Both the position numbers and the translations under genes were made by a program. 20,348 nt of DNA. Source: a virus (lineage: Duplodnaviria > Heunggongvirae > Uroviricota > Caudoviricetes). Under the pieces are notes generated by a model that was not told where the DNA came from, did not search any database, and worked only from the letters and a program-made list of their open reading frames with translations. Of this stretch, positions 3,900 through 19,868 are shown one piece after another. Where the stretch lies: IMG/VR virus record IMGVR_UViG_2728369592_000008; one strand, 5' to 3'. Positions within the stretch are counted from its first letter, which is position 1, and every line of letters begins with the position of its first letter.

Positions 3900-4733
3900 A
3901 TGAACATCGAAAAAAGCAGATTAATTTCTGAGGCCGCCCCTCATCTGAACGCCTCTCTGGGCACAATTAACGGTAATGAATTTGCCGCAATTGTCCCGGT
4001 TATTCCTGGTCATATCGGTGGGCGTGAAACCAATATTGTTAGCGCAAAAGCGTTACACAAAGCGTTGGGCGTGGGAAAAGACTTCTCTACATGGATCACT
4101 GATCGCATCTCTGAATATGACTTCACCATTGGGCACGATTACTCAGTCCATAAAACAATTTCCCCAAATTTGGGGAAAAGCCCGAATGGCGCGGCTTACA
4201 GCAAGATAAAGCACTCTGGCAGACCCGGCAAAGACTATCTGTTAAGTGTCGGAATGGCGAAAGAACTGGCAATGATCGAACGCAATGATCAGGGTCGCGC
4301 TATCCGCCGTTATTTCATCCAGTGCGAGGAAGAATTACAGCGTAGCGTGCCTGAAATCGCCGCCCGCTATCGTCGCCAGCTAAAAGCCCGTCTCAGTGCC
4401 GCAAACAACTTTAAGCCAATGTGCGATGCGCTGAATATGGCCCGTGCCGAGATGGGTAAAACGACGCAGCAACACCACTACACAAACGAGAGCAATATGA
4501 TTTCTCGTATCGTTCTTGGTGGGCTAACTGCTAAGCAGTGGGCGCGGATAAATGGCTATTCTGGCGAACCTCGCGACCATATGAACGCAGAACAGCTTGA
4601 GCACCTCTCATATCTCGAAAGCACCAATATCACGTTAATTGATATGGGCATGGAATATGAGCAGCGCAAAGGAGAACTCACCCGCCTGTCGCAACGCTGG
4701 CTCGCCAAGCGTCTGGAGGTGGTCAATGTCTAA
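3900..4733 (+). CDS. Phage antirepressor-like protein (AntA/KilAC-type DNA-binding domain), tentative
   Basis: 277 aa; segment DYLLSVGMAKELAMIERNDQGRAIRRYFIQCEEEL resembles the conserved core of phage antirepressor / Rha-like domains. Recognition by eye only. Confidence 0.5.
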   Translation: MNIEKSRLISEAAPHLNASLGTINGNEFAAIVPVIPGHIGGRETNIVSAKALHKALGVGKDFSTWITDRISEYDFTIGHDYSVHKTISPNLGKSPNGAAYSKIKHSGRPGKDYLLSVGMAKELAMIERNDQGRAIRRYFIQCEEELQRSVPEIAARYRRQLKARLSAANNFKPMCDALNMARAEMGKTTQQHHYTNESNMISRIVLGGLTAKQWARINGYSGEPRDHMNAEQLEHLSYLESTNITLIDMGMEYEQRKGELTRLSQRWLAKRLEVVNV

Positions 4734-4908
4734 GCCAACAGGAACACCACAACCACAAAAACGCTACAAAGATGCCCACGGAGCACTCGTTACTGTCGAA
4801 AGCGTGTCTCACAACCGAGTGACGTTTTATCGCGACGGGTATCAATCGCCATGCGTACAACCGCTGGCGCGTTTCATGAAGGAGTTCGCGGAGGTTAACA
4901 AATGCTAA
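4726..4908 (+). CDS. Small hypothetical protein (60 aa)
   Basis: ATG at 4726 preceded by GGAGGTGG (4714-4721); it is the in-frame internal start of the listed 4639-4908 ORF and overlaps the end of the upstream gene. Confidence 0.45.
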   Translation: MSKPTGTPQPQKRYKDAHGALVTVESVSHNRVTFYRDGYQSPCVQPLARFMKEFAEVNKC

Positions 4909-5969
4909 CCGTCCAGAAGAAGACATTTTCACTGGCTGGTATGTCGCCAAAATCCAGCAATATGACGGCAAAGTCAGGCATTAATACCGCAGATACAAGC
5001 AAAGTTTATCATTTGCTGGTGGTCGGAACGGATGCCTTAACCATATCAGAAATCTCGGGCGATGATATTAGCATTGAGAAGGTCAGCGGCTGCGCCAGAA
5101 AATTTCTGGTCGTAGATGATGTCTTCCGCTCGTGTAGTGACTCCACAAAAACATTCGTCCACGCGCGTGACGTTAACGAAATGAGCGCGATGTACTGTGC
5201 ATCTGGTGCTTCCAATAGCGAGTTTTCGGAGTCCATAAAAAAGAGCTTGCCGTTATGCGGCAACACGGTTTATGGTTATAAGGCACCTCATAAAACGGGT
5301 GCCGGGATTGGCGTCCTGGTAAATCGAATGGCGACATATGACGCGCCGAGCGTCTTTTTTTATGTCGTAGGTCTGACTCACCCATTTTTTGGGCGTTGGT
5401 GTATAATCCAGCGCCTTTGTCAATCAATGGTGGCTCAGGCAGGGGCTTCTTCGGAAGCGCCGGTATCCATTCGAGCCGGTTACGCCAACCCTGTCTGGGC
5501 TACCACCAGCGAAATTGGCGTTTCCGGTGGTAGCGTTACATGCTATCGAATGGAGGCTGCCACATGCTGGCTACTACCCCTACCCAAAAACCGCAATTTA
5601 TCTGGATTATCGCCGCAGTTCGCCGCGATTGCCCGACAATTACCGCCAAAATTCATCATATTGCTGCCGAGTCTGAACGCGATGCTCGCCGTTCTCTGGT
5701 GCGCGATCACGTCTGCTTTTTTGCTGGTCGTATCCGCATGGAGGTGGCTCATGATTAAAACCTACGATGTGCATATGGATCCCCTCGAACGCACAAGCCA
5801 GATCATCACACTGACAGAAGTGATTAACGACATTCTGGTGAGCAACTCTCCCTCACGAGACGAAAGACTGAAGGCGTTACTCGCGATATTGGATCTCGCC
5901 GTTCGTGACGTTCATTTCCTGCTGGAAGGTGGCGAAATGCCAGGAAAAACGGGGGCAACCAATGAATAA
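4902..5969 (+). CDS. Unresolved ORF (355 aa as read); possibly a fusion artefact or overprinted region, with a likely independent 72 aa gene at 5751-5969
   Basis: Start at 4902 has a good RBS (GGAGG 4890-4894) and the frame stays open for 355 codons, but the middle section has atypical Ser/Cys/Trp-rich composition. An in-frame ATG at 5751 has its own strong RBS (GGAGGTGG 5740-5747). Confidence 0.3.
5564..5758 (+). CDS. Small hypothetical protein (64 aa), alternative frame nested in the 4902-5969 ORF
   Basis: ATG 5564 with GGAGG at 5552-5556; protein-like composition ([15 protein letters not shown]); stop overlaps the ATG at 5751. Conflicts with the 4902-5969 reading; only one model can be fully right. 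Confidence 0.35.
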   Translation: MLATTPTQKPQFIWIIAAVRRDCPTITAKIHHIAAESERDARRSLVRDHVCFFAGRIRMEVAHD

Positions 5970-6156
5970 CTCAATTAATACCCCTCGCCTTACGTCCGCA
6001 CTTCAATTAATCGAGCAAGCAGCGGCTGTCCTGGTTGCTGTCAGTCTTTCGGCTGAAGAAATGGACGCTGCTGATGTCGTGGATGCGATTAAAGCGTGCT
6101 CATCTTTGGTTAACGATGCCCGTGCCGAGCTGGTAATTCTTGGGGGTGAAAAATGA
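5962..6156 (+). CDS. Small hypothetical protein (64 aa)
   Basis: ATG 5962 preceded by a G-rich RBS, overlaps upstream stop; part of a chain of coupled small ORFs. Confidence 0.45.
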   Translation: MNNSINTPRLTSALQLIEQAAAVLVAVSLSAEEMDAADVVDAIKACSSLVNDARAELVILGGEK

Positions 6157-6416
6157 ATATCAACTTAATTTATCGTCATCCGTGTGAGCTGGAAATTGAA
6201 TCATTGCTGGGGCGTGAAGAGCCATATCCAGACACATTCACTCCCGCAGATTGCGCGACTGAACGGCTTACCAGAGCGCGCACAGGTCTGGTTCATGTGA
6301 TGAATGAGATTGTTCCCTCGGTGGGAGGGGAACAGGCGACAGTAATCAATAGCTGGCTACAAAAAGTTACCTCCCTGATAGATATCGGTTTAATCGATGT
6401 GGAGAGTGCGAAATGA
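6153..6416 (+). CDS. Small hypothetical protein (87 aa)
   Basis: ATGA start/stop overlap with the upstream ORF. Confidence 0.5.
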   Translation: MNINLIYRHPCELEIESLLGREEPYPDTFTPADCATERLTRARTGLVHVMNEIVPSVGGEQATVINSWLQKVTSLIDIGLIDVESAK

Positions 6417-6634
6417 CCAACATCCAGCTCATTGAAGCGCAATGTCGCATCGAACAGGTTCAGACTGTTTTAGGGTTCTGGCTTGAAGGGGCCAGCCCCA
6501 GCAACAGAGACAAGTTAATGATTGGCGCGGTTATGTCACTGCTTAATGGCGTACCAGAAGCTATTCAGGAAGCGGACGAATTGTTGGGCAAATATGAGTT
6601 ACAGAATCATTCAGGCGAGGCGAAACATGAATAA
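6413..6634 (+). CDS. Small hypothetical protein (73 aa)
   Basis: ATGA start/stop overlap with the upstream ORF. Confidence 0.5.
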   Translation: MTNIQLIEAQCRIEQVQTVLGFWLEGASPSNRDKLMIGAVMSLLNGVPEAIQEADELLGKYELQNHSGEAKHE

Positions 6635-7229
6635 TTTCTTAACTTTCCATGCAGAAGCAACGCCTGACGGCGTAAACATCATGTACCGCAGCAACGATGG
6701 CATGACAGAACGCGTTGAGGCCATCTCATATATTGATGCCGTAAATCGTCTGGATGCCGGGGATTATGACGATAAACCAGATGAAGGTATGTCAATACAT
6801 CTCGCTATTGCCGATGGCGGCAACCAGGGATATTTCGATTACACATCACAGCATAACGTCATTATGTGGAGATGGCTGATCGCAACAGTATTCATGCTGG
6901 AAATGAGAGAGGAAAACGGCACTGTCAGCATCATTGATGATACTGGCAATCCTTCCGAAGTGGCTGTTTATTCCAACGGCATCGTCGCCATGCCGCTGTA
7001 TCCAGTAGCAGAGCGCCTCGCTATGGCAAACAACATTGAGGGCGCGATGATAGAACGTTTTGGCATCGAGTCTGGCACAGAACGCGCCATCATTTTCTAC
7101 AGAGCCATGATGGATGTGGAACAAGGAGCACTGACTCCATTTGGTCGTGAAACGCTTGCTGAACTTCACAACAGCTTTATAGCTGAACTGAATGAAAACG
7201 GCATGCCAGCGGAACCAGTGACGCACTGA
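6627..7229 (+). CDS. Hypothetical protein (200 aa)
   Basis: In-frame ATG at 6627 overlapping the previous stop; the listed 6522 start would overlap the upstream gene by ~110 nt and is less likely. Confidence 0.5.
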   Translation: MNNFLTFHAEATPDGVNIMYRSNDGMTERVEAISYIDAVNRLDAGDYDDKPDEGMSIHLAIADGGNQGYFDYTSQHNVIMWRWLIATVFMLEMREENGTVSIIDDTGNPSEVAVYSNGIVAMPLYPVAERLAMANNIEGAMIERFGIESGTERAIIFYRAMMDVEQGALTPFGRETLAELHNSFIAELNENGMPAEPVTH

Positions 7230-7581: not shown

Positions 7582-7945
7582 AAATGCAGAAATGGCGCTT
7601 AGCTCCGCAATCGGAGAGCAGGTGGCAAAGATTGCTGGTGCTGTGTGGATTCATAACCTTCATTCTACTGGTGAAGAGAAAATGGTAATTCAGACGCCAG
7701 AGGGACGCACCATTACTACATCTCTGAAGCCGTCAGATGTTTGTGATCTGATTTGCGCATTCATGTACCCAGCAATGAGGACTGTCCACGGCGATAAGTG
7801 GAAACTTGCGACAACCGCTGAATTTGATATGTGGCTAAACAATGATGGCATGCTGACTGATTACGGAATAACCAAGTGGCAGATGCTGGTTAGCCATATC
7901 GCAAACGCTATAGACCACGTGGGGTACGGTGATGCGAAACATTGA
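7574..7945 (+). CDS. Hypothetical protein (123 aa)
   Basis: ORF with GGGAGG RBS; overlaps neighbours at both ends. Confidence 0.5.
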   Translation: MRENAEMALSSAIGEQVAKIAGAVWIHNLHSTGEEKMVIQTPEGRTITTSLKPSDVCDLICAFMYPAMRTVHGDKWKLATTAEFDMWLNNDGMLTDYGITKWQMLVSHIANAIDHVGYGDAKH

Positions 7946-10688
7946 TCTTATCCGTCAGGTTATCAGTGCGTCTGAAAACAACTGGCCTCATGTGCTGGGC
8001 TGCCTGAACATAAATGTCCCTGACTCTCCGCGCCGTCATGCTCCCTGCCCTGCATGTGGGGGCAAAGATCGATTCCGGTTCGATGACAACGGGCGCGGTA
8101 GCTTCATCTGTAATCAGTGCGGCGCTGGTGATGGGCTGGATTTAATTAAACGCGTAAATAACTGCGACACAACAGAGGCGGCGCTTCTTGCCGCTGATGT
8201 TCTGGGTATTGATTACCGGACAACGGAAACACCAGAAGCCACCAGCCAGAAACGGGAACAACTGGAAACCGAGCGCCAGCGACGCGAACAGGAGCGCCTG
8301 AAAAGGGCAGAGAAGGACGAACAACAAAGACGGGATACGTTTTCCCGTCAGTTTGATGACATGCGCAGAAAGGCTGTAAACGGCAAATCTGATTATCTGG
8401 TTGCGAAAGGGGTAGGTGATTTTACATTCCCCGTGTTGCCCGATGGATCTCTGTTGCTGGCGCTGGTGGATAAATCCGGCGCAGTAACAGCAGCACAGAC
8501 TATTACCTCACATGGTGAAAAAAGACTCCTGACAGGTTCAGCAAAGCGGGGGGCATATCACGCCATAAACGCACCAGAAACAACACAGAGCATCTTAATC
8601 GCAGAAGGTCTGGCAACGGCATTATCTGCCCATTTAATTCGTCCAGAGGCGCTGACAGTGGCGGCGATTGATGCCGGGAACCTGTTATATGTCGCCCAGG
8701 TACTGCGGGATAAATTTCCTTCAGCACAAATCATCATTGCTGCGGATAACGACCACAGCGAAGGAAGACAAAACACGGGGAGAATAGCAGCAGAAAAAGC
8801 AGCTTTATCTGTTTCTGGATGGGTGGCATTACCCCCGACAGATCACAAAGCAGACTGGAATGATTACCACCAAAAACACGGCATTAAATGCGCCACAGAA
8901 GCGTTCAATAAGTCAATGTACCAACCACAGGGTAATGGCGTGAAACAGGAGCCACAGACCATTGAGGGAAGCGATTTTAAGGTTATGGATACCGACCCAC
9001 TGAAACCAAGAATAGAAAGCCGCGAGGATGGTATTTATTGGGTATCTCCGAGAGCTGACAGCCAGAGTGGAGAAATCATCAATAACGAAAGCTGGTTATG
9101 TTCTCCGTTAAGCGTTATCGGTACTGGCAGAGACGATAAAGACCAGTATCTCATTCTTCGCTGGCTGTCGTTTGGTTCTGAAACGCCGACAACCGCTGCC
9201 ATTCCACTGGCTGATATTGGTGAACGTGAAGGATGGCGCACACTTAAAGCTGGTGGGGTAAATGTCACGACCAAAAGCAGCCTCAGAGCAATACTGGCAG
9301 ACTGGCTACAACGCAGTGGCTCTCGTGAATTGTGGCGTGTTGCTCATGCCACTGGCTGGCAATGCGGAGCGTACATCATGCCTGATGGGGAAATCATCGG
9401 AACACCTGAAAATCCTGTGCTGTTCAGCGGGAGAAGCTCAGCCGCAGCCGGATATACCGTCTCAGGGAGCGCGAAAAGCTGGCGTGATAACGTGGCGCGT
9501 CTGGCCTTTGGTAACTATTCAATGATGACCGGGATCGGCGCAGCACTGGCAGCGCCATTGATTGGGCTGGTGGGCGCTGACGGGTTCGGCATTCATTTCT
9601 ATGAGCAGTCGAGCGCAGGTAAGACCACCACGGCAAACGTGGCGAGCAGCTTATACGGCAACCCTGATTTACTGCGGCTGACGTGGTACGGAACCGCGCT
9701 GGGGCTGGCAAATGAGGCCGCCGCCCACAATGACGGACTAATGCCGCTTGATGAAGTTGGTCAGGGCGCTGATCCTGTCAGCGTTTCACAGTCTGCCTAT
9801 GCGTTATTTAACGGTGTAGGGAAACTGCAAGGCGCTAAAGATGGTGGAAACCGGGATCTAAAACGCTGGCGTACAGTGGCAATCAGCACCGGAGAAATGG
9901 ATTTAGAAACATTTATCGCTACTTCCGGGCGAAAAACCAAAGCCGGGCAACTGGTGCGACTGCTGAATATTCCGTTGAGTAAAGCAGTACGCTTTCACGA
10001 TTACCAGAACGGAAAACAGCACGCAGACGCACTGAAAGACGCTTACCAGCATCACCACGGCGCGTCCGGGCGTGAGTGGATTAAATGGCTGGCACACCAC
10101 CAGCAACAGGCTATTAAAACCGTTCGTGATTGCGAAAGCAGATGGAGAAGCCTGATCCCATCCGATTATGGTGAGCAGGTTCACCGTGTAGCCGCGCGAT
10201 TTGCCATTCTAGAGGCCGCATTGTTGTTAGGCGAGGTTGTAACAGGCTGGGATGCTCAGACATGCCGTGATGCGATACAGCACAGCTATAACGCATGGTT
10301 GCGCGAGTTCGGCACAGGTAACAAAGAGCATCAGCAGATTATTGAACAAACGGAGGCATTTCTTAATGCCTATGGGCTTAGCCGTTTTGCACCATTTCCA
10401 TACAGCCCGGCAGATTTGCCCATCAAAGATTTAGCCGGATACCGTCAGCGTGGAGAACATGACGAAAGCCCAATGATTTTCTACACATTCCCGGCCACAT
10501 TTGAAAAGGAGATCGCATGTGGTTTCAACGCAAAACAGTTTGCTGAAGTGTTGAAAAAAGCCGGGATGCTAACCCCACCAAACAGCGGTCGTGGATACCA
10601 AAGAAAATCACCACGTATTCAGGGACGACAAATAAACGTTTATGTACTCAATTACCAGCCAGGAGATTATAACTCATCTGAAGAATGA
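7932..10688 (+). CDS. Phage/satellite primase-helicase (zinc-ribbon + Toprim primase + P-loop NTPase)
   Basis: ~918 aa. Cys-rich zinc-binding motif PCPACGGKDRFRFDDNGRGSFICNQCG; Toprim-like acidic motifs (IAEGLATALS, IIIAADNDHSEGRQNTG); Walker A SSAGKTT near nt 9610. Architecture as in P4 alpha-like replication proteins. ATG 7932 preferred over the GTG at 7929. Confidence 0.85.
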   Translation: MRNIDLIRQVISASENNWPHVLGCLNINVPDSPRRHAPCPACGGKDRFRFDDNGRGSFICNQCGAGDGLDLIKRVNNCDTTEAALLAADVLGIDYRTTETPEATSQKREQLETERQRREQERLKRAEKDEQQRRDTFSRQFDDMRRKAVNGKSDYLVAKGVGDFTFPVLPDGSLLLALVDKSGAVTAAQTITSHGEKRLLTGSAKRGAYHAINAPETTQSILIAEGLATALSAHLIRPEALTVAAIDAGNLLYVAQVLRDKFPSAQIIIAADNDHSEGRQNTGRIAAEKAALSVSGWVALPPTDHKADWNDYHQKHGIKCATEAFNKSMYQPQGNGVKQEPQTIEGSDFKVMDTDPLKPRIESREDGIYWVSPRADSQSGEIINNESWLCSPLSVIGTGRDDKDQYLILRWLSFGSETPTTAAIPLADIGEREGWRTLKAGGVNVTTKSSLRAILADWLQRSGSRELWRVAHATGWQCGAYIMPDGEIIGTPENPVLFSGRSSAAAGYTVSGSAKSWRDNVARLAFGNYSMMTGIGAALAAPLIGLVGADGFGIHFYEQSSAGKTTTANVASSLYGNPDLLRLTWYGTALGLANEAAAHNDGLMPLDEVGQGADPVSVSQSAYALFNGVGKLQGAKDGGNRDLKRWRTVAISTGEMDLETFIATSGRKTKAGQLVRLLNIPLSKAVRFHDYQNGKQHADALKDAYQHHHGASGREWIKWLAHHQQQAIKTVRDCESRWRSLIPSDYGEQVHRVAARFAILEAALLLGEVVTGWDAQTCRDAIQHSYNAWLREFGTGNKEHQQIIEQTEAFLNAYGLSRFAPFPYSPADLPIKDLAGYRQRGEHDESPMIFYTFPATFEKEIACGFNAKQFAEVLKKAGMLTPPNSGRGYQRKSPRIQGRQINVYVLNYQPGDYNSSEE

Positions 10689-10710
10689 GCTTCTTCATGT
10701 GCGTAGAAAA

Positions 10711-10828
10711 GGTGTTGGTTCAGTTGGTTCAGTTGGTTCAATTTGTAAAGTGTATTGTTTTATAAGGATTTTATTCTTTTTATTGAACCAACACTGAACC
10801 AACAACACGGTATTTTGAACCAACACAA
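10711..10828 (+). repeat. Iteron cluster, putative origin of replication (three direct GTTGGTTCA repeats, AT-rich spacer, three inverted copies)
   Basis: GGTGTTGGTTCAGTTGGTTCAGTTGGTTCA at 10711-10740, AT-rich 10751-10781, then TTGAACCAACA-type repeats at 10782-10828; immediately downstream of the primase stop. Confidence 0.65.
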
Positions 10829-10874
10829 TGTGACTGAATTGATGCGCACAACACCTGGCTGGCATCAGAGAGTG

Positions 10875-10950
10875 TTTTACGAGACTTTCGTAAAATCCTG
10901 TGTACAAGGGCGTGACGTTTTTGAAAGTGAGCACTACGAAATTTTCGTAG
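10875..10950 (+). promoter_or_regulatory. Two palindromic sites sharing a TACGAAA/TTTCGTA half-site
   Basis: TTTTACGA-N5-TCGTAAAA at 10875-10895 and the perfect palindrome CTACGAAA-T-TTTCGTAG at 10934-10950. Confidence 0.4.
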
Positions 10951-11143
10951 TTCAAAAAACAGCCTCTGAGAAGTTGTTATGCCTGTTCAGCAAACCATCC
11001 GCATAGCTGATCGCGAATCAAATTACCAATGGAGCCAGAAGCAAGGGCAGAACTGAAAAGCGCCTGCCGTGAAGAGTAATGCGACACCATAAATATAGTT
11101 TTTAGAGTCCATAAAAAACCTGTCAAAACCTGACACACAGAAC

Positions 11144-11177
11144 GATGCCACCAGCTACTGAGCGGTGGCATTTTTTT
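11144..11177 (+). terminator. Rho-independent terminator closing the primase transcription unit
   Basis: Stem TGCCACC (11146-11152) / GGTGGCA (11164-11170) followed by TTTTTTT (11171-11177). Confidence 0.65.
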
Positions 11178-11273
11178 GTGCTATTTGTTTCATATTTTGC
11201 AATTACTATGATGAATATTGCGATTTGTGAAACTATAATAACTGTTGTTTTATACAGTTCTAAGGGGGGCGTT

Positions 11274-11435
11274 ATGGCTATTTCAGTAAAGCCGGTATTG
11301 ATAAGTGAGAAGCAAATGGAAGCGATAAAGAAAATTCAGGAAGAGCAGCGTAAAAAATCAGGAATTGGAGTAGCGCCAACTCTGCATGAAATTGCACGAG
11401 GGTTAATAGATAAGGCGCTGGCAGGCTGTATGTGA
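11274..11435 (+). CDS. Small hypothetical protein (53 aa), first gene of the cargo operon
   Basis: ATG 11274 preceded by AAGGGGGG; the listed longer ORF (from 11145) would read through the terminator and is rejected. Confidence 0.45.
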   Translation: MAISVKPVLISEKQMEAIKKIQEEQRKKSGIGVAPTLHEIARGLIDKALAGCM

Positions 11436-11451
11436 AAATGGATGGCATCGC

Positions 11452-11913
11452 ATGGAACTAAAATTTATTGATAACCCTGTGCGATTACAGGCCTTTCTTA
11501 ACGAGCCAGGCAATACCGAAAATATTGTTGAGCCGGGGCACACGTACTACATCAAGCCTGATGCGGTATATCTCGGCATCTACGAAGGATTGGTGCTGGC
11601 TGGCGTTCATGAAGTGCGTAACTTCTGGCATAGCATTGTTGAATGCCATGCGGTGTACGACCCCGGATTCCGTGGTGAATATGCACTGCAAGGGCATCGA
11701 TTATTCTGCAAATGGCTTCTCGAAAACTCACCATTCCTTAACAGCATTACCATGGTTCCTGACACCACCAAATACGGACGGGCAATTATCCGTTTGCTTG
11801 GCGCTACCCGTGTTGGTCACCTTGATGATGCTTATATCAGATGTGGTAAACCCGTCGGCGTAACGCTTTATCAGTTAACTCGGCAACAATATAAGGAATT
11901 CAGCGAATGTTAA
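11452..11913 (+). CDS. Hypothetical protein (153 aa); possibly a P22 gp14-like virion protein by position
   Basis: ORF directly upstream of, and overlapping, the next gene; the call is by position and size only. Confidence 0.5.
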   Translation: MELKFIDNPVRLQAFLNEPGNTENIVEPGHTYYIKPDAVYLGIYEGLVLAGVHEVRNFWHSIVECHAVYDPGFRGEYALQGHRLFCKWLLENSPFLNSITMVPDTTKYGRAIIRLLGATRVGHLDDAYIRCGKPVGVTLYQLTRQQYKEFSEC

Positions 11914-12584
11914 TTACCCACATAGCTCATAAACATCTCAATCGTGCCGTATACGAAAAAGGCGGTGATGGTGGTGCCTCTAAAGCTCAGGCGAAGGCCC
12001 AGCAGCAGGCAATTGATTTGCAGCGCGAGCAGTGGAATACGGTGATGAATAATCTCAAGCCGTATGCAGAAGTCGGATTGCCTGCTTTACAACAACTACA
12101 AGGACTGATGACTCTGGAAGGGCAGAATAAAGCCGCGAATGATTTCTTTGGTTCTGGTTTATATAAAACACAGGCAGATCAGGCCCGTTATCAGAACCTT
12201 GTCTCAGCAGAAGCTACCGGGGGGCTTGGCTCAACAGCTACCAGTAACCAGTTATCTTCCATTGCGCCCATGCTTTATAACAATTGGCTTAGTGGGCAAA
12301 TGCAAAATTATGGAAACCTGCTAAATGTCGGGATGAATGCGGCATCAGGGCAGGCAACAGCAGGGCAAAACTACGCCAATAATACCGGGCAACTCTTGCA
12401 GGGGCTTGGCGCTATTCGTGCAGGTCAGGCGCAGCAGCCATCCAGTCTTGCGCGTGGTATTGGTGGGGCGGCATCAGGCGCTTTAGCGGGTGCGCAACTT
12501 GGTTCCGTTGTTCCGGGTATAGGTAATGTCGCCGGGGCTATTGGTGGTGGGCTTATTGGTCTTGTTGGGGGGCTTGGATTCTAA
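11907..12584 (+). CDS. Gly/Gln-rich protein with C-terminal glycine-zipper hydrophobic tail; possibly P22 gp7-like ejection protein
   Basis: 225 aa; RBS AAGGAA; C-terminus GIGGAASGALAGAQLGSVVPGIGNVAGAIGGGLIGLVGGLGF; size and position match the first ejection protein of P22-like phages (from memory). Confidence 0.5.
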   Translation: MLITHIAHKHLNRAVYEKGGDGGASKAQAKAQQQAIDLQREQWNTVMNNLKPYAEVGLPALQQLQGLMTLEGQNKAANDFFGSGLYKTQADQARYQNLVSAEATGGLGSTATSNQLSSIAPMLYNNWLSGQMQNYGNLLNVGMNAASGQATAGQNYANNTGQLLQGLGAIRAGQAQQPSSLARGIGGAASGALAGAQLGSVVPGIGNVAGAIGGGLIGLVGGLGF

Positions 12585-14005
12585 TGGCGACATGGCAACT
12601 TGGCGGGCTGCCTAGCATGGCACCGCAAAATGATAATGCTCCTCGTTCTTCCGTTCCTCAGCCTGTGCAGTATCAGCAGCAGCCAAACGTAGGTTTAATG
12701 GCGCTACAGGGGCTAAGAGGCGTTGCTGAGATTAATCAGCAGGCACGTCAACAACAGCGTAAAGCAGAGTTTCAGAAAGCATATGCCGGGGCTTTTGAGT
12801 CTGGAGACAGAAACAAAATGCGCAGTCTTATTTCTGAGTATCCAGAAGAATTTGAAAGCGTTCAGAAAGGGATGGGCTTTATTGATGACGACCAGAGAAA
12901 TTCTATTGGTCATCTTGCGACTAGTGCTCAAATCGCATCTTCGCTCGGAACTGGGGCATTTGGAAAATTCATAGCAGATAACGAAGATGAAATGCGTCGC
13001 TTGGGAATTTCTCCTGAGTCTGTTGCCGAAATGCATGTTAATGATCCACAGGGATTCCAGCGGCTTGCTGGTAGTATGGCACTGTTTTCTCTCGGTCATG
13101 AGAAGTATTTCGATATCAAAGATCAAATGGAAGGTCGGGATATTGAGCGTGGCAAGTTGGCAGAAACAATCCGCAGCAATCAGGCTGGCGAAGCACTTCA
13201 GGCGAGAGGGCAGGATATTAGCCGAGCAAATGCGTTAACGTCAGCATATGCACCAACAGCAGCAATGCAGAATTACAATCAGTACGCTCAAATGTTAAAG
13301 GAGGATCCAGAGGGGGCGGCGGCATTTGCGGCAGCGGCTGGAATTAATACAAACGCCAAAAAATTAATGAGTGTTAGAGAAAACGATGATGGCACTGTCA
13401 CAAAATACTACACAGACGGAAGTGAAGAGCAGGGAAAACTAAACCAGCCAATATCTGGAGATGGGTTTCGTCCAATAGCTTTGCCAACAGCCCAAAAGAT
13501 CATGGAAAAGTCGCCAGAAGGGGCTAAAAAAGCTGCTGGATTTGCATACAGGGTTAGGGATGCTCTTGATTCAATAGATACACTGAAAGACCAGCTTAGC
13601 CCACAGCGAGTGGCGATCATTAATAATGCTTTGGGTAATGGGACGCTGGCTAACTTAACGCTCAGCCCAACAGAGCAGCAATACGTTGTTAATGCTAATG
13701 ACGCAATAATGGCAATACTCCGTCAGGAAACAGGGGCAGCTATCGTACCTGCTGAAATGTCAAAATATTATCAAATGTATTTCCCTCAGCCTGGCGACTC
13801 CACAAAAACCATTGATACCAAGCGCCGGAAGATGGAAAACCAGTTCAATTCGCTGAAAGCTGCTTCTGGTCGAGCTTATGATGCTTTGCGGGTTATTTCA
13901 GCAGTTGACAGAGGAACTTCTTCTTCGTCGCAGACATTGCCGCAATCTGAGCAGGTATCACAGCCAGCAGCCAGCAGTAACTTTTCTTCACTATGGGGTG
14001 ATTAA
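12584..14005 (+). CDS. Hypothetical protein (473 aa); possibly P22 gp20-like DNA-transfer/ejection protein
   Basis: ATG overlaps upstream stop (TAATGG); size and order consistent with the middle ejection protein of P22-like phages. Confidence 0.5.
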   Translation: MATWQLGGLPSMAPQNDNAPRSSVPQPVQYQQQPNVGLMALQGLRGVAEINQQARQQQRKAEFQKAYAGAFESGDRNKMRSLISEYPEEFESVQKGMGFIDDDQRNSIGHLATSAQIASSLGTGAFGKFIADNEDEMRRLGISPESVAEMHVNDPQGFQRLAGSMALFSLGHEKYFDIKDQMEGRDIERGKLAETIRSNQAGEALQARGQDISRANALTSAYAPTAAMQNYNQYAQMLKEDPEGAAAFAAAAGINTNAKKLMSVRENDDGTVTKYYTDGSEEQGKLNQPISGDGFRPIALPTAQKIMEKSPEGAKKAAGFAYRVRDALDSIDTLKDQLSPQRVAIINNALGNGTLANLTLSPTEQQYVVNANDAIMAILRQETGAAIVPAEMSKYYQMYFPQPGDSTKTIDTKRRKMENQFNSLKAASGRAYDALRVISAVDRGTSSSSQTLPQSEQVSQPAASSNFSSLWGD

Positions 14006-16110
14006 TGGCTAAAGCATGGAAAGATGTTATCGCCTCTCCACAGTATCAGGCGTTAGCACCAGAACAAAAAGCGCAGGCTCAGGAGCAATACTTCAATGAA
14101 GTCGTTGCCCCGCAAGCCGGAGAAAGTGTAGAGCAGGCTAAGCAGGCTTTTTATGCTGCCTATCCACTACCATCAACGAATGAAATAGACCGAGCCCAAT
14201 CAGCAACTCAAAATATTCAACATACATCATCTGATAATTCTCTTGCGTCAGGGTATGCAAAGTTAGCTACTCAGCAAAGAGAGGGGCTTGAGCGTTCAGC
14301 AGAACAGGGAGCCAGCCTTGGGGCTGCGATGCGCGATGCTATAACAGGCGAAAGCCGAATGACTCCAGAGATGGAGAGACTGCAAAATGTCGACCTTGCC
14401 CCAGAGTTAACCTCACTCAGCATGGATGCTCTAAAAGCTCGATGGTCTCAACTTTTCGGCTCTGACGCATCTCAGGAAAAGATTCTTCAGAGCATGGGAG
14501 CGAAATTAAGGCAGGATGAGAAGGGTAACACTATCGTTTCCCTGCCATCCGGTGATTATGCTCTGAACAAGCCGGGTTTATCGCCGCAAGACGTGGCATC
14601 GTTTCTGGCTAATGCGCTGGCGTTTACACCAGCGGGCAGGGCCGGAACGGTGCTGGGGGCCATAGGGAAATCAGCAGCTACAGATTTAGCACTACAGGGA
14701 GCCACCAGCCTCGCTGGTGGAGAAGATATTGATCCGTTACAAACGGTAATTTCTGCTGGCATTGGTGGTATTGGTAAGGGGCTGGAAAATACAGCGAGTG
14801 CGGTTTCGAGGGCTGTTCGTGGTGATATGTCGCCTGAAGCAAAGGCTGCTGTCGACTTTGCATCGGAAAGAAATCTGCCGTTAATGACCAGTGACATGCT
14901 GAAAGATAAAACCTTTATGCAGAGTCAGGCTCAGACATTAGGCGAAAGAGTTCCTTTTTTTGGAACCGGTAAGAATCGGCTGAATCAACAACAAGCACGA
15001 GAAAATTTAGTCAGAACATTTAGCGATGGTCTGGGTGGCATTTCTGATAAACAGCTTTATGAATCTGCGACTAAAGGGCAACAAAAATTCATTGAGGCAG
15101 CAGGAAAGCGATATAACCGCATAATTGACGCTATGGGGGATACCCCTGTCGATCTCTCAAACACGGTAAAAGCTATCGACAATCAGATTGCTGTGTTAAG
15201 CCGCCCGGGTAAATCTCAGGATAGAGCCGCGGTAAAAGTCTTGCAGCAATTTAAAGACGATATCACCAGCGGACCAAATGACCTGCGTCTGGCGAGGGAA
15301 AACAGAACCGATCTTCGAAAGCGGTTTATGGCGTCATCTGACACTGTTGATAAAGATACGCTCCAGAAAGCCAGCGATATTATCTACAAGGCATATACGG
15401 CGGATATGAAAAAAGCCGTAGCCAAAAATCTTGGAGCAGACGAAGCCATTAATATGGCAAGGGTTGATCGCTCATGGTCTAAATTCAATGACATGATGGG
15501 AAGAACGCGCGTTCAAAAGGCAATAGCCAGCGGCAAGGCCACGCCTGAGGATGTAACAAAACTCGTTTTTAGCCAAAGCCCATCAGAACGTTCTCAGCTT
15601 TACAGGCTTCTGGATGACAATGGTAGGCAAAACGCACGAGCAGCCATAGTTCAGAATGCTGTAGATAAGGCGACTGATCCGTCTGGAAATATCAGTGTTG
15701 AGAAGTTTATTAATGCGTTACACCGGAACAGGAAGCAATCAGCAACTTTCTTTAAAGGCGTACATGGAAAGGAACTGGACGGCGTTATTAAATACCTCAA
15801 CGATACAAGACACGCGGCAAAAGCGAACGTTCAAAACTTAAATGGTCAGCAGCTTTATGGATTGTTAGTTGGTGGTGGCATCATAAACGCAGCAGTATTA
15901 GCGGGGATGCTAAAAACGGCTGCGTTTGTTGTTCCTGCTGCTGGTGCCGTAGGCGGAGCCGCGAAGGCATACGAAAGCCCTGTTATACGAAATGCCTTGT
16001 TACGTTTGGCAAATACGCCAAAAGGTAGCACAGCATATGACAGAGCGATCAGTACGGTCACACAATCGCTCACCAGAGTCGCACAGGCATCACAAAAAGA
16101 AGCTCAATAA
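14005..16110 (+). CDS. Hypothetical protein (701 aa) with C-terminal hydrophobic hairpin; possibly P22 gp16-like DNA-transfer/ejection protein
   Basis: ATG overlaps upstream stop; Ala/Gln/Lys-rich; hydrophobic stretch LLVGGGIINAAVLAGMLKTAAFVVPAAGAVGGAA near the C-terminus. Confidence 0.5.
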   Translation: MAKAWKDVIASPQYQALAPEQKAQAQEQYFNEVVAPQAGESVEQAKQAFYAAYPLPSTNEIDRAQSATQNIQHTSSDNSLASGYAKLATQQREGLERSAEQGASLGAAMRDAITGESRMTPEMERLQNVDLAPELTSLSMDALKARWSQLFGSDASQEKILQSMGAKLRQDEKGNTIVSLPSGDYALNKPGLSPQDVASFLANALAFTPAGRAGTVLGAIGKSAATDLALQGATSLAGGEDIDPLQTVISAGIGGIGKGLENTASAVSRAVRGDMSPEAKAAVDFASERNLPLMTSDMLKDKTFMQSQAQTLGERVPFFGTGKNRLNQQQARENLVRTFSDGLGGISDKQLYESATKGQQKFIEAAGKRYNRIIDAMGDTPVDLSNTVKAIDNQIAVLSRPGKSQDRAAVKVLQQFKDDITSGPNDLRLARENRTDLRKRFMASSDTVDKDTLQKASDIIYKAYTADMKKAVAKNLGADEAINMARVDRSWSKFNDMMGRTRVQKAIASGKATPEDVTKLVFSQSPSERSQLYRLLDDNGRQNARAAIVQNAVDKATDPSGNISVEKFINALHRNRKQSATFFKGVHGKELDGVIKYLNDTRHAAKANVQNLNGQQLYGLLVGGGIINAAVLAGMLKTAAFVVPAAGAVGGAAKAYESPVIRNALLRLANTPKGSTAYDRAISTVTQSLTRVAQASQKEAQ

Positions 16111-16128
16111 CTGGTAGCCATGGATGGC

Positions 16129-16743
16129 TTAGATATCTCTGCTGTCTCCATTAGGAAATAAAAGATAATATGGATTTGCCTTTCTTGCTCTCCTTGCTTC
16201 ACCTGGATACCTGTTAGTCAGTAGTTTGCATAATGAGCAGAGAACAACACTCAAGAAAATTCCGAATGAGAAGATCAATATCTCACCAAAAATCAATGGC
16301 GATATTAAATTTTCAGGATTTAATGATAAGTCAATGTTAAAAACATATTGAGCAATACCAGTAAGTATCAATAATATAATCCCTATGGAATACATTGCTG
16401 TTTCCCAAACATCAGACAGTCTATTTTTGAATTGTTCGCTGGAGTAGTAGTTTGTTATAAAGTCAGAAAAATCACTCTCATATGCATCATCTTTAGGTGA
16501 TGTTAGAAATCCTCTGTCTCTCCATACCTTCTCCCAATTAGTCGATTCTTTTTTTAAGGAAAAATAAATATGTATTGCCAAAAGGATAGCCAAAATTGGT
16601 GTTAGCTCTAAAAAATAGAATGTTATGGAATAAATAATACTGCCATGTTCAAACTCATCTGGGACTATCATGTATGCACAAAAATAAATTGAAAAGTACA
16701 CCATGCAGATAGTTAGCAATTCTTTAGTATCTTTTCTGCTCAC
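16129..16743 (-). CDS. AT-rich polytopic inner-membrane protein (about four predicted TM helices); candidate superinfection-exclusion or defence effector
   Basis: 204 aa, GTG start with AAGGGGG RBS; hydrophobic segments at roughly aa 9-27, 36-61, 116-135, 147-176; visibly lower GC than flanking genes; convergent with the upstream operon. Confidence 0.55.
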   Translation of the reverse strand: MSRKDTKELLTICMVYFSIYFCAYMIVPDEFEHGSIIYSITFYFLELTPILAILLAIHIYFSLKKESTNWEKVWRDRGFLTSPKDDAYESDFSDFITNYYSSEQFKNRLSDVWETAMYSIGIILLILTGIAQYVFNIDLSLNPENLISPLIFGEILIFSFGIFLSVVLCSLCKLLTNRYPGEARRARKANPYYLLFPNGDSRDI

Positions 16744-16960
16744 ACCAACCCCCTTTAGCGTTGTTTAGAATGGCAATCATCATATATCCAAGACATGGCA
16801 TTTGGTACATAGCTTGGGTCGGGATTTCAAATCCGATCCCCGTTGATGGGGCCGTTACAGTACGCGCATATCCGCTTTATGTGAAACAGGAAGATTTTTC
16901 TGATATCACTGCCACAGCAAAACACCAATTTCGTGACCAGTACGCGCGCGAGGGGTATCA

Positions 16961-16979
16961 GTTGCAAAAATTTTGCAAC
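16961..16979. promoter_or_regulatory. Perfect 19 bp palindrome GTTGCAAAA-A-TTTTGCAAC flanked by GACCAGTACGC direct repeats
   Basis: Palindrome at 16961-16979; GACCAGTACGC at 16934-16944 and 16987-16997; related CAGTACGCGC motifs near 16858 and 17225. Confidence 0.45.
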
Positions 16980-17612
16980 TACGTCCGACCAGTACGCACA
17001 CGATGGCGGGGGATACCATGAAACTGTTCTCTACACGAGACAGAGTGGTGGTGATGTGTTGATTATCGGCGTATATGCGCACAGGACGCGCTATGACGAT
17101 GTTTTATGCGGGTACACCAATCACATGTATCTGATGTGATAAATCGTGTTACATGACATCTCATGTTGTGCTGGTGGTTATCACGACGTTCTGAATCTGG
17201 CCTTTGCCTGATATTTTGCGACAAGTACGCGCGCGTAGCATCGAAATTATCGGATGGCGTATGCTGCTGGCAATATGAAGACCGATAGTATTAACCGAAA
17301 AGCGATTAAGGAGTGCCAACTTTTCAGTAGAGAAACTAGCCAGCATAGGAAAATGTAGAAATTACCCAATTAATAGGTAAAAGTTATTGACACAGCCTGT
17401 AGTGGATAACGATATGAATAAAAACCACATATAGTGGTTTTTCGTGAGTGATGATAGTATCTATGTTAGTTTCCTAAGTAACTGTGCATTGACATGTGGA
17501 TAACTTCGGATAGAGTTACAGGCAACCGAGCCCGATCCTCTGTTTCTCCGCCGCCGATTTCAGGCATGTGAGTTTCACGGTCGGGCCTTTTATTATCTTT
17601 TGTTTCGCCACT

Positions 17613-18590
17613 ATGATTGCCGCAAAGCCTCATAAGGACTATCACGAATTGCTAGGATTGCTACTTGAACGTGGCATGATTATCAATGATCGAAATCGTG
17701 CGATACGTAAGCTGTCGCAGGTTGGATATTATCGATTGTCAGGTTTTTGGTACCCATCAAGAATTATTGCGACAACAGATAAAGGTCTTTCGTACAGAAC
17801 AGACCGATTTCTTGCTGGTACCAGTTTCGAGAAGACGTACGATCTATATCTTTTTGACAAAAAACTGCGTCTTTTGATGATTGATGCTATCGAAAGAATA
17901 GAGATTCATGTTCGTTCAGTCATCGCGCATGAGGTTGGTCGCAATGATCCACTTGCCTACATGTCATCAAAATACATTAATCCAAAATTCTCATCTGCCT
18001 TCGAGCATTGGGTGTATAAGCAAAAAGTAAAATTAGACGAAAGCAGAGATGACTGTATTGAATGGCATCGAAGCCAAGGCAAGGAGATTCCATTTTGGGT
18101 GGCGGTGGAGACCTGGGATTTTGGTCAGATGTCTAAATATTATGCGATGCTTAATGGTCATATGCAGGGGAAAATTATACGTCGTTTTGGCATTGATAAT
18201 AAGCAGACATTTGCAAAATGGTTGAAGTGCCTTAATCTCATAAGGAATCGTTGCGCTCACCATTCCAGAATATGGAATAGAAAGCATCCCCGAGTTCCAG
18301 TACCGGATAATGAATACTTTGACGGACTTAATCTCCATCCAGAGAGTTGCGAGAGGATTTTTAGCGCGATCTGTATTATCTGGTACTTAGTTAAACGACT
18401 TGGTCCGGGATCAACATGGCTTCGGCAAATTGCAGACCTTATTGACTCTAAACCAAATGTTCCCGGATGTGGATATGATTCAATGGGTTTACCTGCTAAA
18501 GGATTCCCACGAGAGAGATTCTCTCAGGACTTAGGTTTTGTTATCGCCGACAACGACCCTGTAGCTGAAGGGCGGAAAGGGAGCGATTGA
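17613..18590 (+). CDS. Abi_2-family abortive infection protein (AbiD/AbiF-like)
   Basis: Signature stretches match the family: KPHKDYHELLGLLLERGMIINDRNRAIRKLSQVGYYRLSGFWYP, LYLFDKKLRLLMIDAIERIEIHVRSVIAHEV, LIRNRCAHHSRIWNR. ATG 17613 preferred; the listed 17568 start adds 15 hydrophobic residues. Confidence 0.8.
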   Translation: MIAAKPHKDYHELLGLLLERGMIINDRNRAIRKLSQVGYYRLSGFWYPSRIIATTDKGLSYRTDRFLAGTSFEKTYDLYLFDKKLRLLMIDAIERIEIHVRSVIAHEVGRNDPLAYMSSKYINPKFSSAFEHWVYKQKVKLDESRDDCIEWHRSQGKEIPFWVAVETWDFGQMSKYYAMLNGHMQGKIIRRFGIDNKQTFAKWLKCLNLIRNRCAHHSRIWNRKHPRVPVPDNEYFDGLNLHPESCERIFSAICIIWYLVKRLGPGSTWLRQIADLIDSKPNVPGCGYDSMGLPAKGFPRERFSQDLGFVIADNDPVAEGRKGSD

Positions 18591-18619
18591 GCGATAAATA
18601 TCATTTATACACTGATCAA

Positions 18620-19060
18620 TTACTGAAGCAGCGTATTGATTCTTTTAATATTGTTACCCTGACGCTTCCACGCGCTGTAAATGTCTTTATCCCACGCTTT
18701 ACCAGCTTTTGTTTGGTAGCCTGCTTCATTGAGCCGTTCCGCTATCACACGCCCATTATCAAATCCCTGTCGGATGGTATCGGCAATGATCTTTATAACT
18801 GCCGTTTCGTTATATGGCTTTGGTGGGATGTTCGGCTTTCCGGCAATAAGCGACGCAGCGGCTTTTTCCATGCGCTCCACCAGCCCAAGCATTCGTGAAT
18901 CAATAGACTTTTCCGGCTGTCCCAGCTTCATGCGAATCGCATCAACAAGCCAGGAGGTTTTATCCCCTCCAGAAGCGAGAACAGACCGATTAAACTCATC
19001 CTGCAATTCAGATGGGATGCGGAACGCGACCAGATTAGATTTGCTCATTGCAAAGACCAT
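18620..19060 (-). CDS. Ribbon-helix-helix DNA-binding protein with C-terminal recombinase-type (catalytic-domain-less) DNA-binding module
   Basis: 146 aa; N-terminal SNLVAFRIPSELQDEFNRSVLASGGDKTSWLVDAIRMKL fits an RHH fold; C-terminal IADTIRQGFDNGRVIAERLNEAGYQTKAGKAWDKDIYSAWKRQ resembles the DNA-binding 'recombinase' domain of large serine recombinases. No clear RBS; start could be 19048. Confidence 0.55.
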   Translation of the reverse strand: MVFAMSKSNLVAFRIPSELQDEFNRSVLASGGDKTSWLVDAIRMKLGQPEKSIDSRMLGLVERMEKAAASLIAGKPNIPPKPYNETAVIKIIADTIRQGFDNGRVIAERLNEAGYQTKAGKAWDKDIYSAWKRQGNNIKRINTLLQ

Positions 19061-19077
19061 ATCAGTGAGTAATATCC

Positions 19078-19109
19078 ATACAGTATACCACTGTATAACA
19101 CTGTTATAC
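19078..19109. promoter_or_regulatory. Overlapping palindromes upstream of the RHH gene (candidate autoregulatory operators)
   Basis: ATACAGT-ATACC-ACTGTAT (19078-19096) and GTATAACA-C-TGTTATAC (19093-19109). Confidence 0.45.
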
Positions 19110-19157
19110 GCTCAAATATCAGCCAGAAAATAACGGACCAATCACAAAGCTATCGCT

Positions 19158-19286
19158 GTGTTGTTGGTTCAGAGCTGGGCTGTGTTGGTTCAAAATGAGT
19201 TGATGTTGGTTCAATATTTCAGAAAAAACACAATAAAAACAACGATCTTTACAAATTGAACCAACTGAACCAACTGAACCAACACC
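19158..19286 (-). repeat. Second iteron cluster, inverted copy of the ori cluster (crr-like cis replication site?)
   Basis: 19247-19286 is the exact reverse complement of the 40-mer at 10711-10750; three further TGTTGGTTCA copies at 19162-19215 across an AT-rich spacer. Confidence 0.6.
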
Positions 19287-19319
19287 TTTTTGCTTATCTA
19301 TATAATCTGAGAGGCAGAA

Positions 19320-19607
19320 ATGATAAGGGACAGGAAAGCTGAAGAACTGGAGTCAAAAGGGCTATACCGGAGAGCTGCCGCACGATGGGCAGAAGTCATG
19401 ATGCTGGCAGATGGCGATAAAGAACGTGAACATGCAGCAAACAGACGCTCTGAATGTATCCGTAAGGCGGCACGCCCACCAGCAACTACAGACAGATTCG
19501 GAGATTTAAGACAGGCAGTTAAGCGGACTCATTCGGCTCTTGGTATGGATGAGGAAGCGAGAGGGTATTTCAGGCGTTATCGCGATAAAGATTGCCAGAG
19601 ACAGTAA
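19320..19607 (+). CDS. PerC-family transcriptional activator-like protein
   Basis: 95 aa; N-terminal RKAEELESKGLYRRAAARWAEVM resembles PerC/Pch family activators carried on prophages; RBS GAGAGG upstream. Confidence 0.55.
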   Translation: MIRDRKAEELESKGLYRRAAARWAEVMMLADGDKEREHAANRRSECIRKAARPPATTDRFGDLRQAVKRTHSALGMDEEARGYFRRYRDKDCQRQ

Positions 19608-19868
19608 TGCTCTCTCTGTTTTGGCAAATTACCCCTCACTTTGAAGGGATCGGAGCTATAAAAATGGTGTTATCCGGCTTCCTGCATTGCAGGTTTTCGA
19701 AAGAATCAATGGGTTAGGTTATCGTGCAAATTTGCACTCTGCCAGCCAACGCAATTTCTCGTTGGCGGAAATATCAGGTATTTACTGAACGAACGGTCTA
19801 CCCGCCTGTTCAACTACCAGTTGTACATGGCTGCTTTATGTGCAAATGGTGGTGAGAGAAAATTGTTT

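Follow-up and report, generated by a model that had tools for sequence, protein, structure and literature searches.

In phage-satellite islands of the PICI type, the published layout of the origin consists of two oppositely oriented iteron sets on either side of an AT-rich region, situated directly 3' of rep (PMC6092414, PMC9371898). The Reps of SaPIs are self-loading helicases in which a C-terminal winged helix reads the iterons directly 3' of rep, half of which are found on each side of the AT-rich centre (PMC9371898). For EcCICFT073, the ori region has been validated experimentally by means of plasmid maintenance (PMC6092414). At the sequence level, this ori is a compact multi-set quasi-palindrome with CTGTCTACC iterons, in which the outer tandem sets are inverted and 190 nt apart. 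In the P4 record, the cis-required region (crr, 4291-4590) is located directly 3' of the gene for alpha (4636-6969) and ori is situated at 9086-9809. In crr as well as in ori, one and the same 8-bp repeat points in both directions, and its tandem copies follow each other every 9 bp. Replication of P4 needs both the ori and the crr clusters. The plasmids P1 (incC/incA) and F (incB/incC) likewise have identical Rep-binding repeats, grouped into two clusters that surround the rep gene or are close to it.

The DNA analyzed here, a stretch of 20,348 nt referred to as the window, is by its sequence a relative of EcCIMP1, a phage-satellite island (PICI) of E. coli at thrW. For EcCIMP1 of E. coli MP1, excision and transfer have been shown, transfer only with the P22-like helper Kapi1, and neither an origin nor iterons are mentioned in the respective paper (PMC11773190). 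The EcCIMP1 sequence has the gene order of the window and the identical two arrays of repeats, with six exact iterons each. The left end of the window harbors proA and tRNA-Thr (1369-1444), followed by the integrase gene, AlpA (PF05930, E 7e-20), and an AntA-like gene, and then by an Ash-family gene, several small ORFs, the primase-helicase gene, and the first array (array 1). The genes for Int, AlpA, AntA, Ash, and the primase are all on the plus strand, at tRNA-Thr (thrW). Downstream of array 1, P22-like gp14/gp7/gp20/gp16, a SieA-like gene, Abi_2, a reverse ORF of 146 aa, the second array (array 2), and perC are encountered. The region 9800-11500 is matched in 596 of 5426 complete E. coli genomes, that is in roughly a tenth of them.

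Several properties connect the window with the PICIs. Array 1 is placed immediately 3' of the primase-helicase (pri-rep) gene, opposed short iteron sets (three on the plus and three on the minus strand) flank an AT-rich region, and the initiator is a Rep-type helicase with a predicted C-terminal winged helix. The iterons also seem to be specific for the cognate Rep, as judged from covariation, which linkage might in part produce, and the element is an island with int, alpA, and co-oriented genes that, by its EcCIMP1/Kapi1 counterpart, is helper-induced. In contrast to the penta- or hexanucleotides of PICIs, however, the iterons of the window are 9-mers, and its helicase is fused to a primase domain that resembles that of P4 alpha. 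Whereas the unit of EcCICFT073 comprises ~230 bp, the unit of the window is interrupted by a cargo of 8.3 kb, and sequence similarity between the EcCICFT073 primase and the primase-helicase of the window was not detected.

With P4, the window has in common two distant clusters of one iteron, one of them directly 3' of the primase-helicase gene, as well as the tandem 9-bp period and homologous N-terminal primase domains. By analogy, the split unit may be said to resemble the bipartite ori/crr plan of P4. Unlike the TGTTCACC-type 8-mers of P4, however, the iteron of the window is GTTGGTTCA, and the protein is not of the alpha type over its whole length, its remaining part matching DUF927, SaPI Rep, and Cch. 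In addition, crr is a 120-bp direct duplication, whereas array 2 of the window is a mirror copy of array 1. An earlier note on this DNA had compared the layout with iteron origins of both P4 and PICIs; the published PICI layout does match, but in P4 the 3' cluster is crr and not ori. The iteron plasmids P1 and F also possess two clusters, and by analogy, the second cluster of the window might serve for the pairing of clusters known as handcuffing. In contrast to plasmid iterons, which are direct and have 17-22 bp, the repeats of the window have 9 bp and occur in both orientations, no Rep_3/RepA-type Pfam domain was found in any of the window proteins scanned, and the element is not a plasmid but an island that is integrated and induced by a helper.

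Two iteron arrays and their conservation

Direct reading of the window bears out the arrangement described in the earlier note, namely three direct 9-mers, an AT-rich spacer, and three inverted copies at 10714-10824 (Table 1). Their position right after the replication gene is equally borne out, as array 1 starts 26 nt past the gene because the stop codon of the latter is at 10686-10688. The minus-strand copies, which on the plus strand appear as the reverse complement TGAACCAAC, are not in tandem but follow each other at start-to-start distances of 11 and 21 nt. Compared to a GC content of 47% for the whole window, the spacer of array 1 is poor in GC. Exact copies of GTTGGTTCA occur 12 times in the window, whereas 0.08 +/- 0.27 copies (at most 1) are expected from 100 dinucleotide-preserving shuffles, and when up to one mismatch is allowed, 20 matches are obtained versus 4.9 +/- 2.3 expected. 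All 12 exact copies are confined to two clusters with six copies per cluster, and the repeats are confirmed as real and non-randomly clustered.

Table 1. Positions of the iteron arrays and associated features in the window.
Feature	Position	Strand	Sequence and remarks
Primase-helicase (pri-rep) gene	7932-10688	+	Pfam Zn_Ribbon_Prim, Toprim_3, DUF927; PHROG DNA primase
Candidate specificity block, codons of residues 892-897 (RKSPRI)	10602-10619	+	Class-separating columns; class-invariant
Left arm of 9-nt inverted pair flanking array 1	10655-10663		CCAGCCAGG; in last codons of primase-helicase gene
Array 1, tandem set	10714-10722, 10723-10731, 10732-10740	+	3 x GTTGGTTCA; 9-bp period; direct reading
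Array 1, AT-rich spacer	10741-10783		43 nt, 16% GC; contains conserved ATTTGTAAAG and core TTTTATAAGGATTTT
Array 1, spaced set	10784-10792, 10795-10803, 10816-10824	-	3 x GTTGGTTCA
Cargo zone between arrays	10829-19162		Absent in compact relatives (linker of ~35-60 nt instead)
Right arm of 9-nt inverted pair flanking array 1	10854-10862		CCTGGCTGG
Array 2, spaced set	19163-19213 (starts 19163, 19184, 19205)	+	3 x GTTGGTTCA; spacing 21 and 21 nt
Array 2, AT-rich spacer	19214-19256		43 nt, 21% GC; ends in CTTTACAAAT, mirror of ATTTGTAAAG
Array 2, tandem set	19257-19283 (starts 19257, 19266, 19275)	-	3 x GTTGGTTCA; 9-bp period

The earlier note had given the first array alone. The six further copies form array 2 (19163-19283), which is situated ~8.4 kb from array 1 and which reverse-complement alignment identifies as its inverted copy. 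The two arrays agree fully in their iterons and in the adjoining ATTTGTAAAG, the remaining part of the spacer has diverged, and the similarity ends at the array borders. The tandem set of array 2 is followed by a conserved CACCTTTTTGCTTATCTATATAAT and is located 36 nt ahead of perC (19320). The segment 10711-10828 represents just half of a conserved two-array unit, with 19163-19283 as the mirror half.

With one genome scanned per species, 77 loci encoding relatives of the primase-helicase were obtained, mostly from Enterobacterales and with 50-81% identity. In about 53 of the 62 related loci that could be assessed, the tandem iteron set begins 19-47 nt past the stop codon of the primase gene, and loci with the array layout range from Escherichia to Yersinia, Serratia, Pantoea, and Erwinia. 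For the 29 loci with the GTTGGTTCA iteron, identity to the window amounts to 97% at iteron positions, 63% in the spacer, and 30% past the array, whereas at the adjacent gene end it is 39% at third-codon positions and 77% at first and second positions. Therefore, the 9-mers are more constrained than the coding sequence alongside. Other iterons are encountered at the same geometry (GTTGTCTCA, GTCGGTTCA, ACGGGTTAY, GGTCGGTT, GTCGGGTA, GTGGGTTA, and CTTATCCCA), and at least seven different iteron sequences exist among the related loci. The 9-bp tandem period, the AT-rich spacer, and inverted copies at ~11 and 21 nt are kept across the classes, as is a conserved spacer core, TTTATAAGG(A/T)TTTT. In every two-array locus the iteron class is identical in both arrays, the pattern that would be expected of a binding site co-evolving with a reader encoded at the same locus.

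With respect to the distance between the arrays, the related loci fall into several forms. In the compact form, represented by ~25 loci and five iteron classes, the first reverse tandem set follows the forward one at a distance of 230-307 nt, and the short linker between the arrays often carries CTGGCTGGCAG. In the split form (~11 loci), tandem and reverse tandem sets are 393-9050 nt apart, with 8544 nt in the window, and in ~17 related loci a reverse tandem set is absent within the fetched flank. The spacer of the second array is AT-rich in all split and in some compact loci and GC-rich in other compact loci. What is found between the arrays varies among loci, and perC is located either inside or outside of the pair. 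Because ~25 relatives as well as the ori of EcCICFT073 have a compact multi-set unit, the compact double array is the usual form of the origin in these islands, and that of the window is split by the 8.3-kb cargo. The view that array 2 is the tandem remnant of a second island was rejected, as array 2 is inverted, adjoins array 1 in ~25 loci, and is present together with array 1 in EcCIMP1.

Besides the iterons, other short elements are present around array 1. Its flanking 9-nt inverted pair CCAGCCAGG/CCTGGCTGG is kept across iteron classes: among 48 related loci, CCAGCCAG is found exactly in the final 60 nt of the gene in 25 cases and the right arm CCTGGCTGG is exact in 18, each at a background of 0.36 per kb. 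In compact relatives, the CCTGGCTGG arm falls into the linker that joins the two arrays. Speculatively, this pair could be a priming or host-factor site. Two further conserved elements are independent of the iteron class, namely TCATGTGCGTAGAAAAGG (TCACAYGYG... in relatives), which extends over 10695-10713 between stop codon and first iteron, and the spacer core TTTTATAAGGATTTT (10755-10772), which is found again in loci with other iteron classes. Just past array 1, two palindromes of the type TACGA-N5-TCGTA (10878-10892 and 10935-10949) are situated 57 nt apart; both are conserved among islands of E. coli, and at one related locus (L019) such a pair is also found past array 2. They look like operators of a dimeric regulator for late or cargo genes.

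Exceptional arrangements exist as well. One related locus (L056) has CTTATCCCA-type iterons past the primase gene, yet an orphan GTTGGTTCA-type array is located 6 kb downstream (17871-17985). A locus from Yersinia pekkanenii possesses three array sets (8154-14214), and the same contig also encodes an HNH-endonuclease protein with similarity to the C-terminal region of the primase.

The primase-helicase and iteron specificity

The product of 7932-10688 had been taken for a primase-helicase, an assignment that is upheld by its Pfam domains, by homology to SaPIbov1 Rep, and by its P4 alpha-like primase part. The start of the gene is supported by the RefSeq start in relatives. The protein consists of an N-terminal Zn-ribbon and Toprim primase, a DUF927 helicase, and a C-terminal winged-helix-like domain. 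Residues 8-362 are 33% identical to P4 alpha (E 3e-34), and sequence comparison with P4 alpha revealed no similarity past residue 362. In a PDB sequence search, residues 403-814 match SaPIbov1 Rep (8tch) with an E value of 1.8e-11, and Cch (5dgk) is also among the best sequence and fold matches. Although the AF2 model, which comprises residues 640-919, is of moderate quality overall (pLDDT 73, pTM 0.48), its last 100 residues reach a pLDDT of 83-95, and its top Foldseek matches are 8tch and 5dgk (E 2e-5). At the C-terminus, the secondary structure of the AF2 model follows the winged-helix-like order strand-strand-helix-helix-hairpin. The last 100 residues are therefore predicted to form a winged helix, an assignment based on the order of secondary structure elements and on the global match to 8tch rather than on superposition at the level of residues.

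For a comparison of iteron classes, 30 proteins of the GTTGGTTCA class and five of the GTTGTCTCA class were aligned. Proteins of the two classes otherwise intermingle and share up to 80% identity, and only seven of ~920 columns separate the GTTGGTTCA from the GTTGTCTCA class completely, and five of these seven correspond to residues 892-895 and 897. At this block, RKSPRI of the GTTGGTTCA class is replaced by GRV-RE in the GTTGTCTCA class, the latter consisting of about three independent lineages. Among GTTGGTTCA-class proteins, GRG[YF]QRKSPRI is invariant, and other classes display RKTPRI, TRKTLRI, TKKTLV, or KRKAKRI as their versions of the block. In the AF2 model, residues 892-897 are part of a predicted hairpin (wing) that follows the helix formed by residues 868-877. 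Among the other shared island proteins, namely Int, AlpA, p143, AntA, and p235, none was found to track the iteron class, the number of separating columns being 0-1. Residues 892-897 are thus a candidate determinant of iteron specificity. As the covarying codons are ~95-110 nt from the first iteron, the covariation may partly be due to hitch-hiking in a swapped module. The proposal of the earlier note that the repeats are bound by the primase/Rep of the element itself is supported by these comparisons, in which the iteron class covaries with residues 892-897 and with no other shared protein. A code of this kind, with residues 892-897 on one side and the 9-mer on the other, is a candidate that could explain how co-resident satellites avoid cross-talk.

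Origin, auxiliary cluster, or operator

Altogether, we consider it quite probable that arrays 1 and 2 are the cognate iterons of the island's own primase-helicase and constitute the cis-acting origin of an EcCIMP1-like PICI. Most likely, this is a PICI-type, Rep-read iteron origin and as such of a kind that is already known. The computed evidence for it comprises the clustering of repeats, the conservation of layout and bases, the covariation of array 1, array 2, and the C-terminal block, and the homology to self-loading initiators. A string search of the literature for either of the tandem-iteron 18-mers gave no hit, figures not being indexed in such searches, and for this island family the putative origin seems to be without description in the searchable literature. 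EcCIMP1-type islands therewith gain a concrete candidate origin.

From the work on SaPI Reps and PICIs we infer a mechanism that covers binding, melting, initiation, and the choice of the array that fires. After induction by the helper phage and excision, the C-terminal winged-helix domains would recognize the 9-bp iterons via the hairpin of residues 892-897. The primase-helicase would form oligomers on both of the opposed iteron sets and melt the AT-rich spacer of 43 bp between them, the proposed melting site in array 1 being 10741-10783. The helicase would then load itself and the fused Toprim primase would prime synthesis. Array 2 contains the same modules in inverted order, and therefore the same protein should bind array 2 as well. 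It might be employed as a second loading site or, in a crr-like auxiliary role, might pair with array 1 and loop out the 8.3-kb cargo.

It is also conceivable, if unlikely, that array 1 is a crr-like auxiliary or copy-control cluster for the binding of Rep and that replication starts at array 2 or elsewhere. Such a function would agree with the plan of P4, where crr is directly 3' of alpha, ori is 4.7 kb away, and type-1 repeats are present in both, with the P4-alpha-like primase domain of the window, and with the presence of every array 1 module, AT-rich spacer included, in array 2. As the cluster 3' of the primase gene is crr in P4, position alone does not identify array 1 as the start site. 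However, the first array always has an AT-rich spacer with a conserved core, whereas the second is GC-rich in many compact relatives, and array 1 is therefore the more constant candidate for the melting site. The ~17 related loci that lack a second array within the fetched flank also speak against a start at array 2, and the mapped origins of SaPIs and of Gram-negative PICIs are directly 3' of rep (PMC6092414, PMC9371898).

Considerably less probable is a function of the arrays as promoter-operator sites instead of an origin, at which the 146-aa product, AlpA, or a Rep acting only as repressor would control late or cargo genes and perC. Array 2 does reside in a divergent intergenic region between the 146-aa ORF on the minus strand and perC, and a conserved TTTTGCTTATATA element is always found directly next to its tandem set. 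Plasmid Reps that bind iterons are often autoregulators, which also counts in favor of operators. In contrast, array 1 is at the 3' end of a gene and not upstream of one, perC may be inside or outside of the array pair, and no other shared island protein tracks the iteron class. A consensus promoter was found in neither array region: a crude scan for sigma-70-like promoters, which may miss activator-dependent ones, detected 0 at 10400-11500 and at 18800-19700, where 2.3 and 1.5, respectively, are expected by chance. As the repeats overlap no sigma-70-like promoter recognizable by this crude scan, a promoter-operator array was rejected. The 146-aa ORF was rejected as the iteron binder as well, since it is missing from most two-array loci and has distinct direct repeats of its own. 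That the inverted arrays are substrates of recombination, either as transposon-like ends of the cargo or as arms of an invertible segment, is hardly credible. Two inverted copies of ~115 nt do bracket 8.3 kb of horizontally acquired genes, and the cargo between them differs among genera and strains, but this cargo contains neither a transposase nor an invertase, ~25 relatives have their arrays adjacent and free of cargo, and each array is internally inverted, unlike the ends of transposons. Using a chimeric query in which the primase end was joined to the reverse-complemented side of array 2, no match with at least 80% coverage was obtained, the inverted junction occurring in 0 of 5426 complete E. 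coli genomes, and an invertible cargo was rejected.

Cargo and island context

Under the preferred reading of the arrays as a Rep-read origin, the split arrangement points to the origin linker as the site at which late genes derived from helpers build up, as do defence genes. Gram-negative PICIs are known to capture late genes of their helpers downstream of primase and ori, and a build-up of cargo in the origin linker bears on this capture by satellites (PMC10111431). More specifically, and as a tentative proposal that we would sooner doubt than adopt, the central linker of the two-array quasi-palindrome might be the insertion site for cargo in this widespread PICI family of Enterobacterales, the halves of the quasi-palindrome having been pushed 0.4-9 kb apart in the window and in ~11 other loci while the iterons of both stayed perfect. 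If so, the primase-helicase would link arrays that are far apart, through looping or handcuffing as with ori and crr of P4, or else both arrays would fire. The shared arrays would then also provide homology anchors by which cassettes of late and defence genes are swapped between islands, and the wing motif of six residues, with RKSPRI and GRV-RE among its versions, would represent a simple and portable code for origin specificity.

The left part of the cargo (11452-16743) is a P22-like cassette for ejection proteins (gp14/DUF2824, gp7, gp20, and gp16) together with a SieA-like gene, all of them inside of a satellite. About 400 nt of this part match Kapi1 and two further podophages of Escherichia with 89-91% identity, and the alleles vary between strains. 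The right part (16744-19060), which includes Abi_2 (17568-18590) and its neighbors, varies among strains of E. coli that have the flanking arrays in common, and it may be a hotspot for defence genes. The reverse ORF of 146 aa (18620-19110) adjoins array 2 in several genera. A Pfam scan of its product found no significant domain, and our impression from its sequence is that it might be ribbon-helix-helix-like. The direct repeats of this ORF, which are located between its start and array 2, are ACTGTATAAC and ACTGTTATAC in the window and two copies of GTAAGACAG elsewhere.

Inside of the Ash-family ORF, Rfam matches to isrK (5283-5360) and to C4 antisense RNA (5423-5510) are found, which suggests an RNA immunity module of the P4 type in this PICI. 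Regarding attL and attR, the tRNA region was found to share no exact repeat of at least 12 nt with either the end of the window or the locus from strain LS45 (L001). In that strain, a P22-like prophage remnant with Arc and a partial tailspike (L001, 1-4816) is situated directly upstream of the island integrase, suggesting that a helper-type prophage and a satellite reside side by side near thrW.
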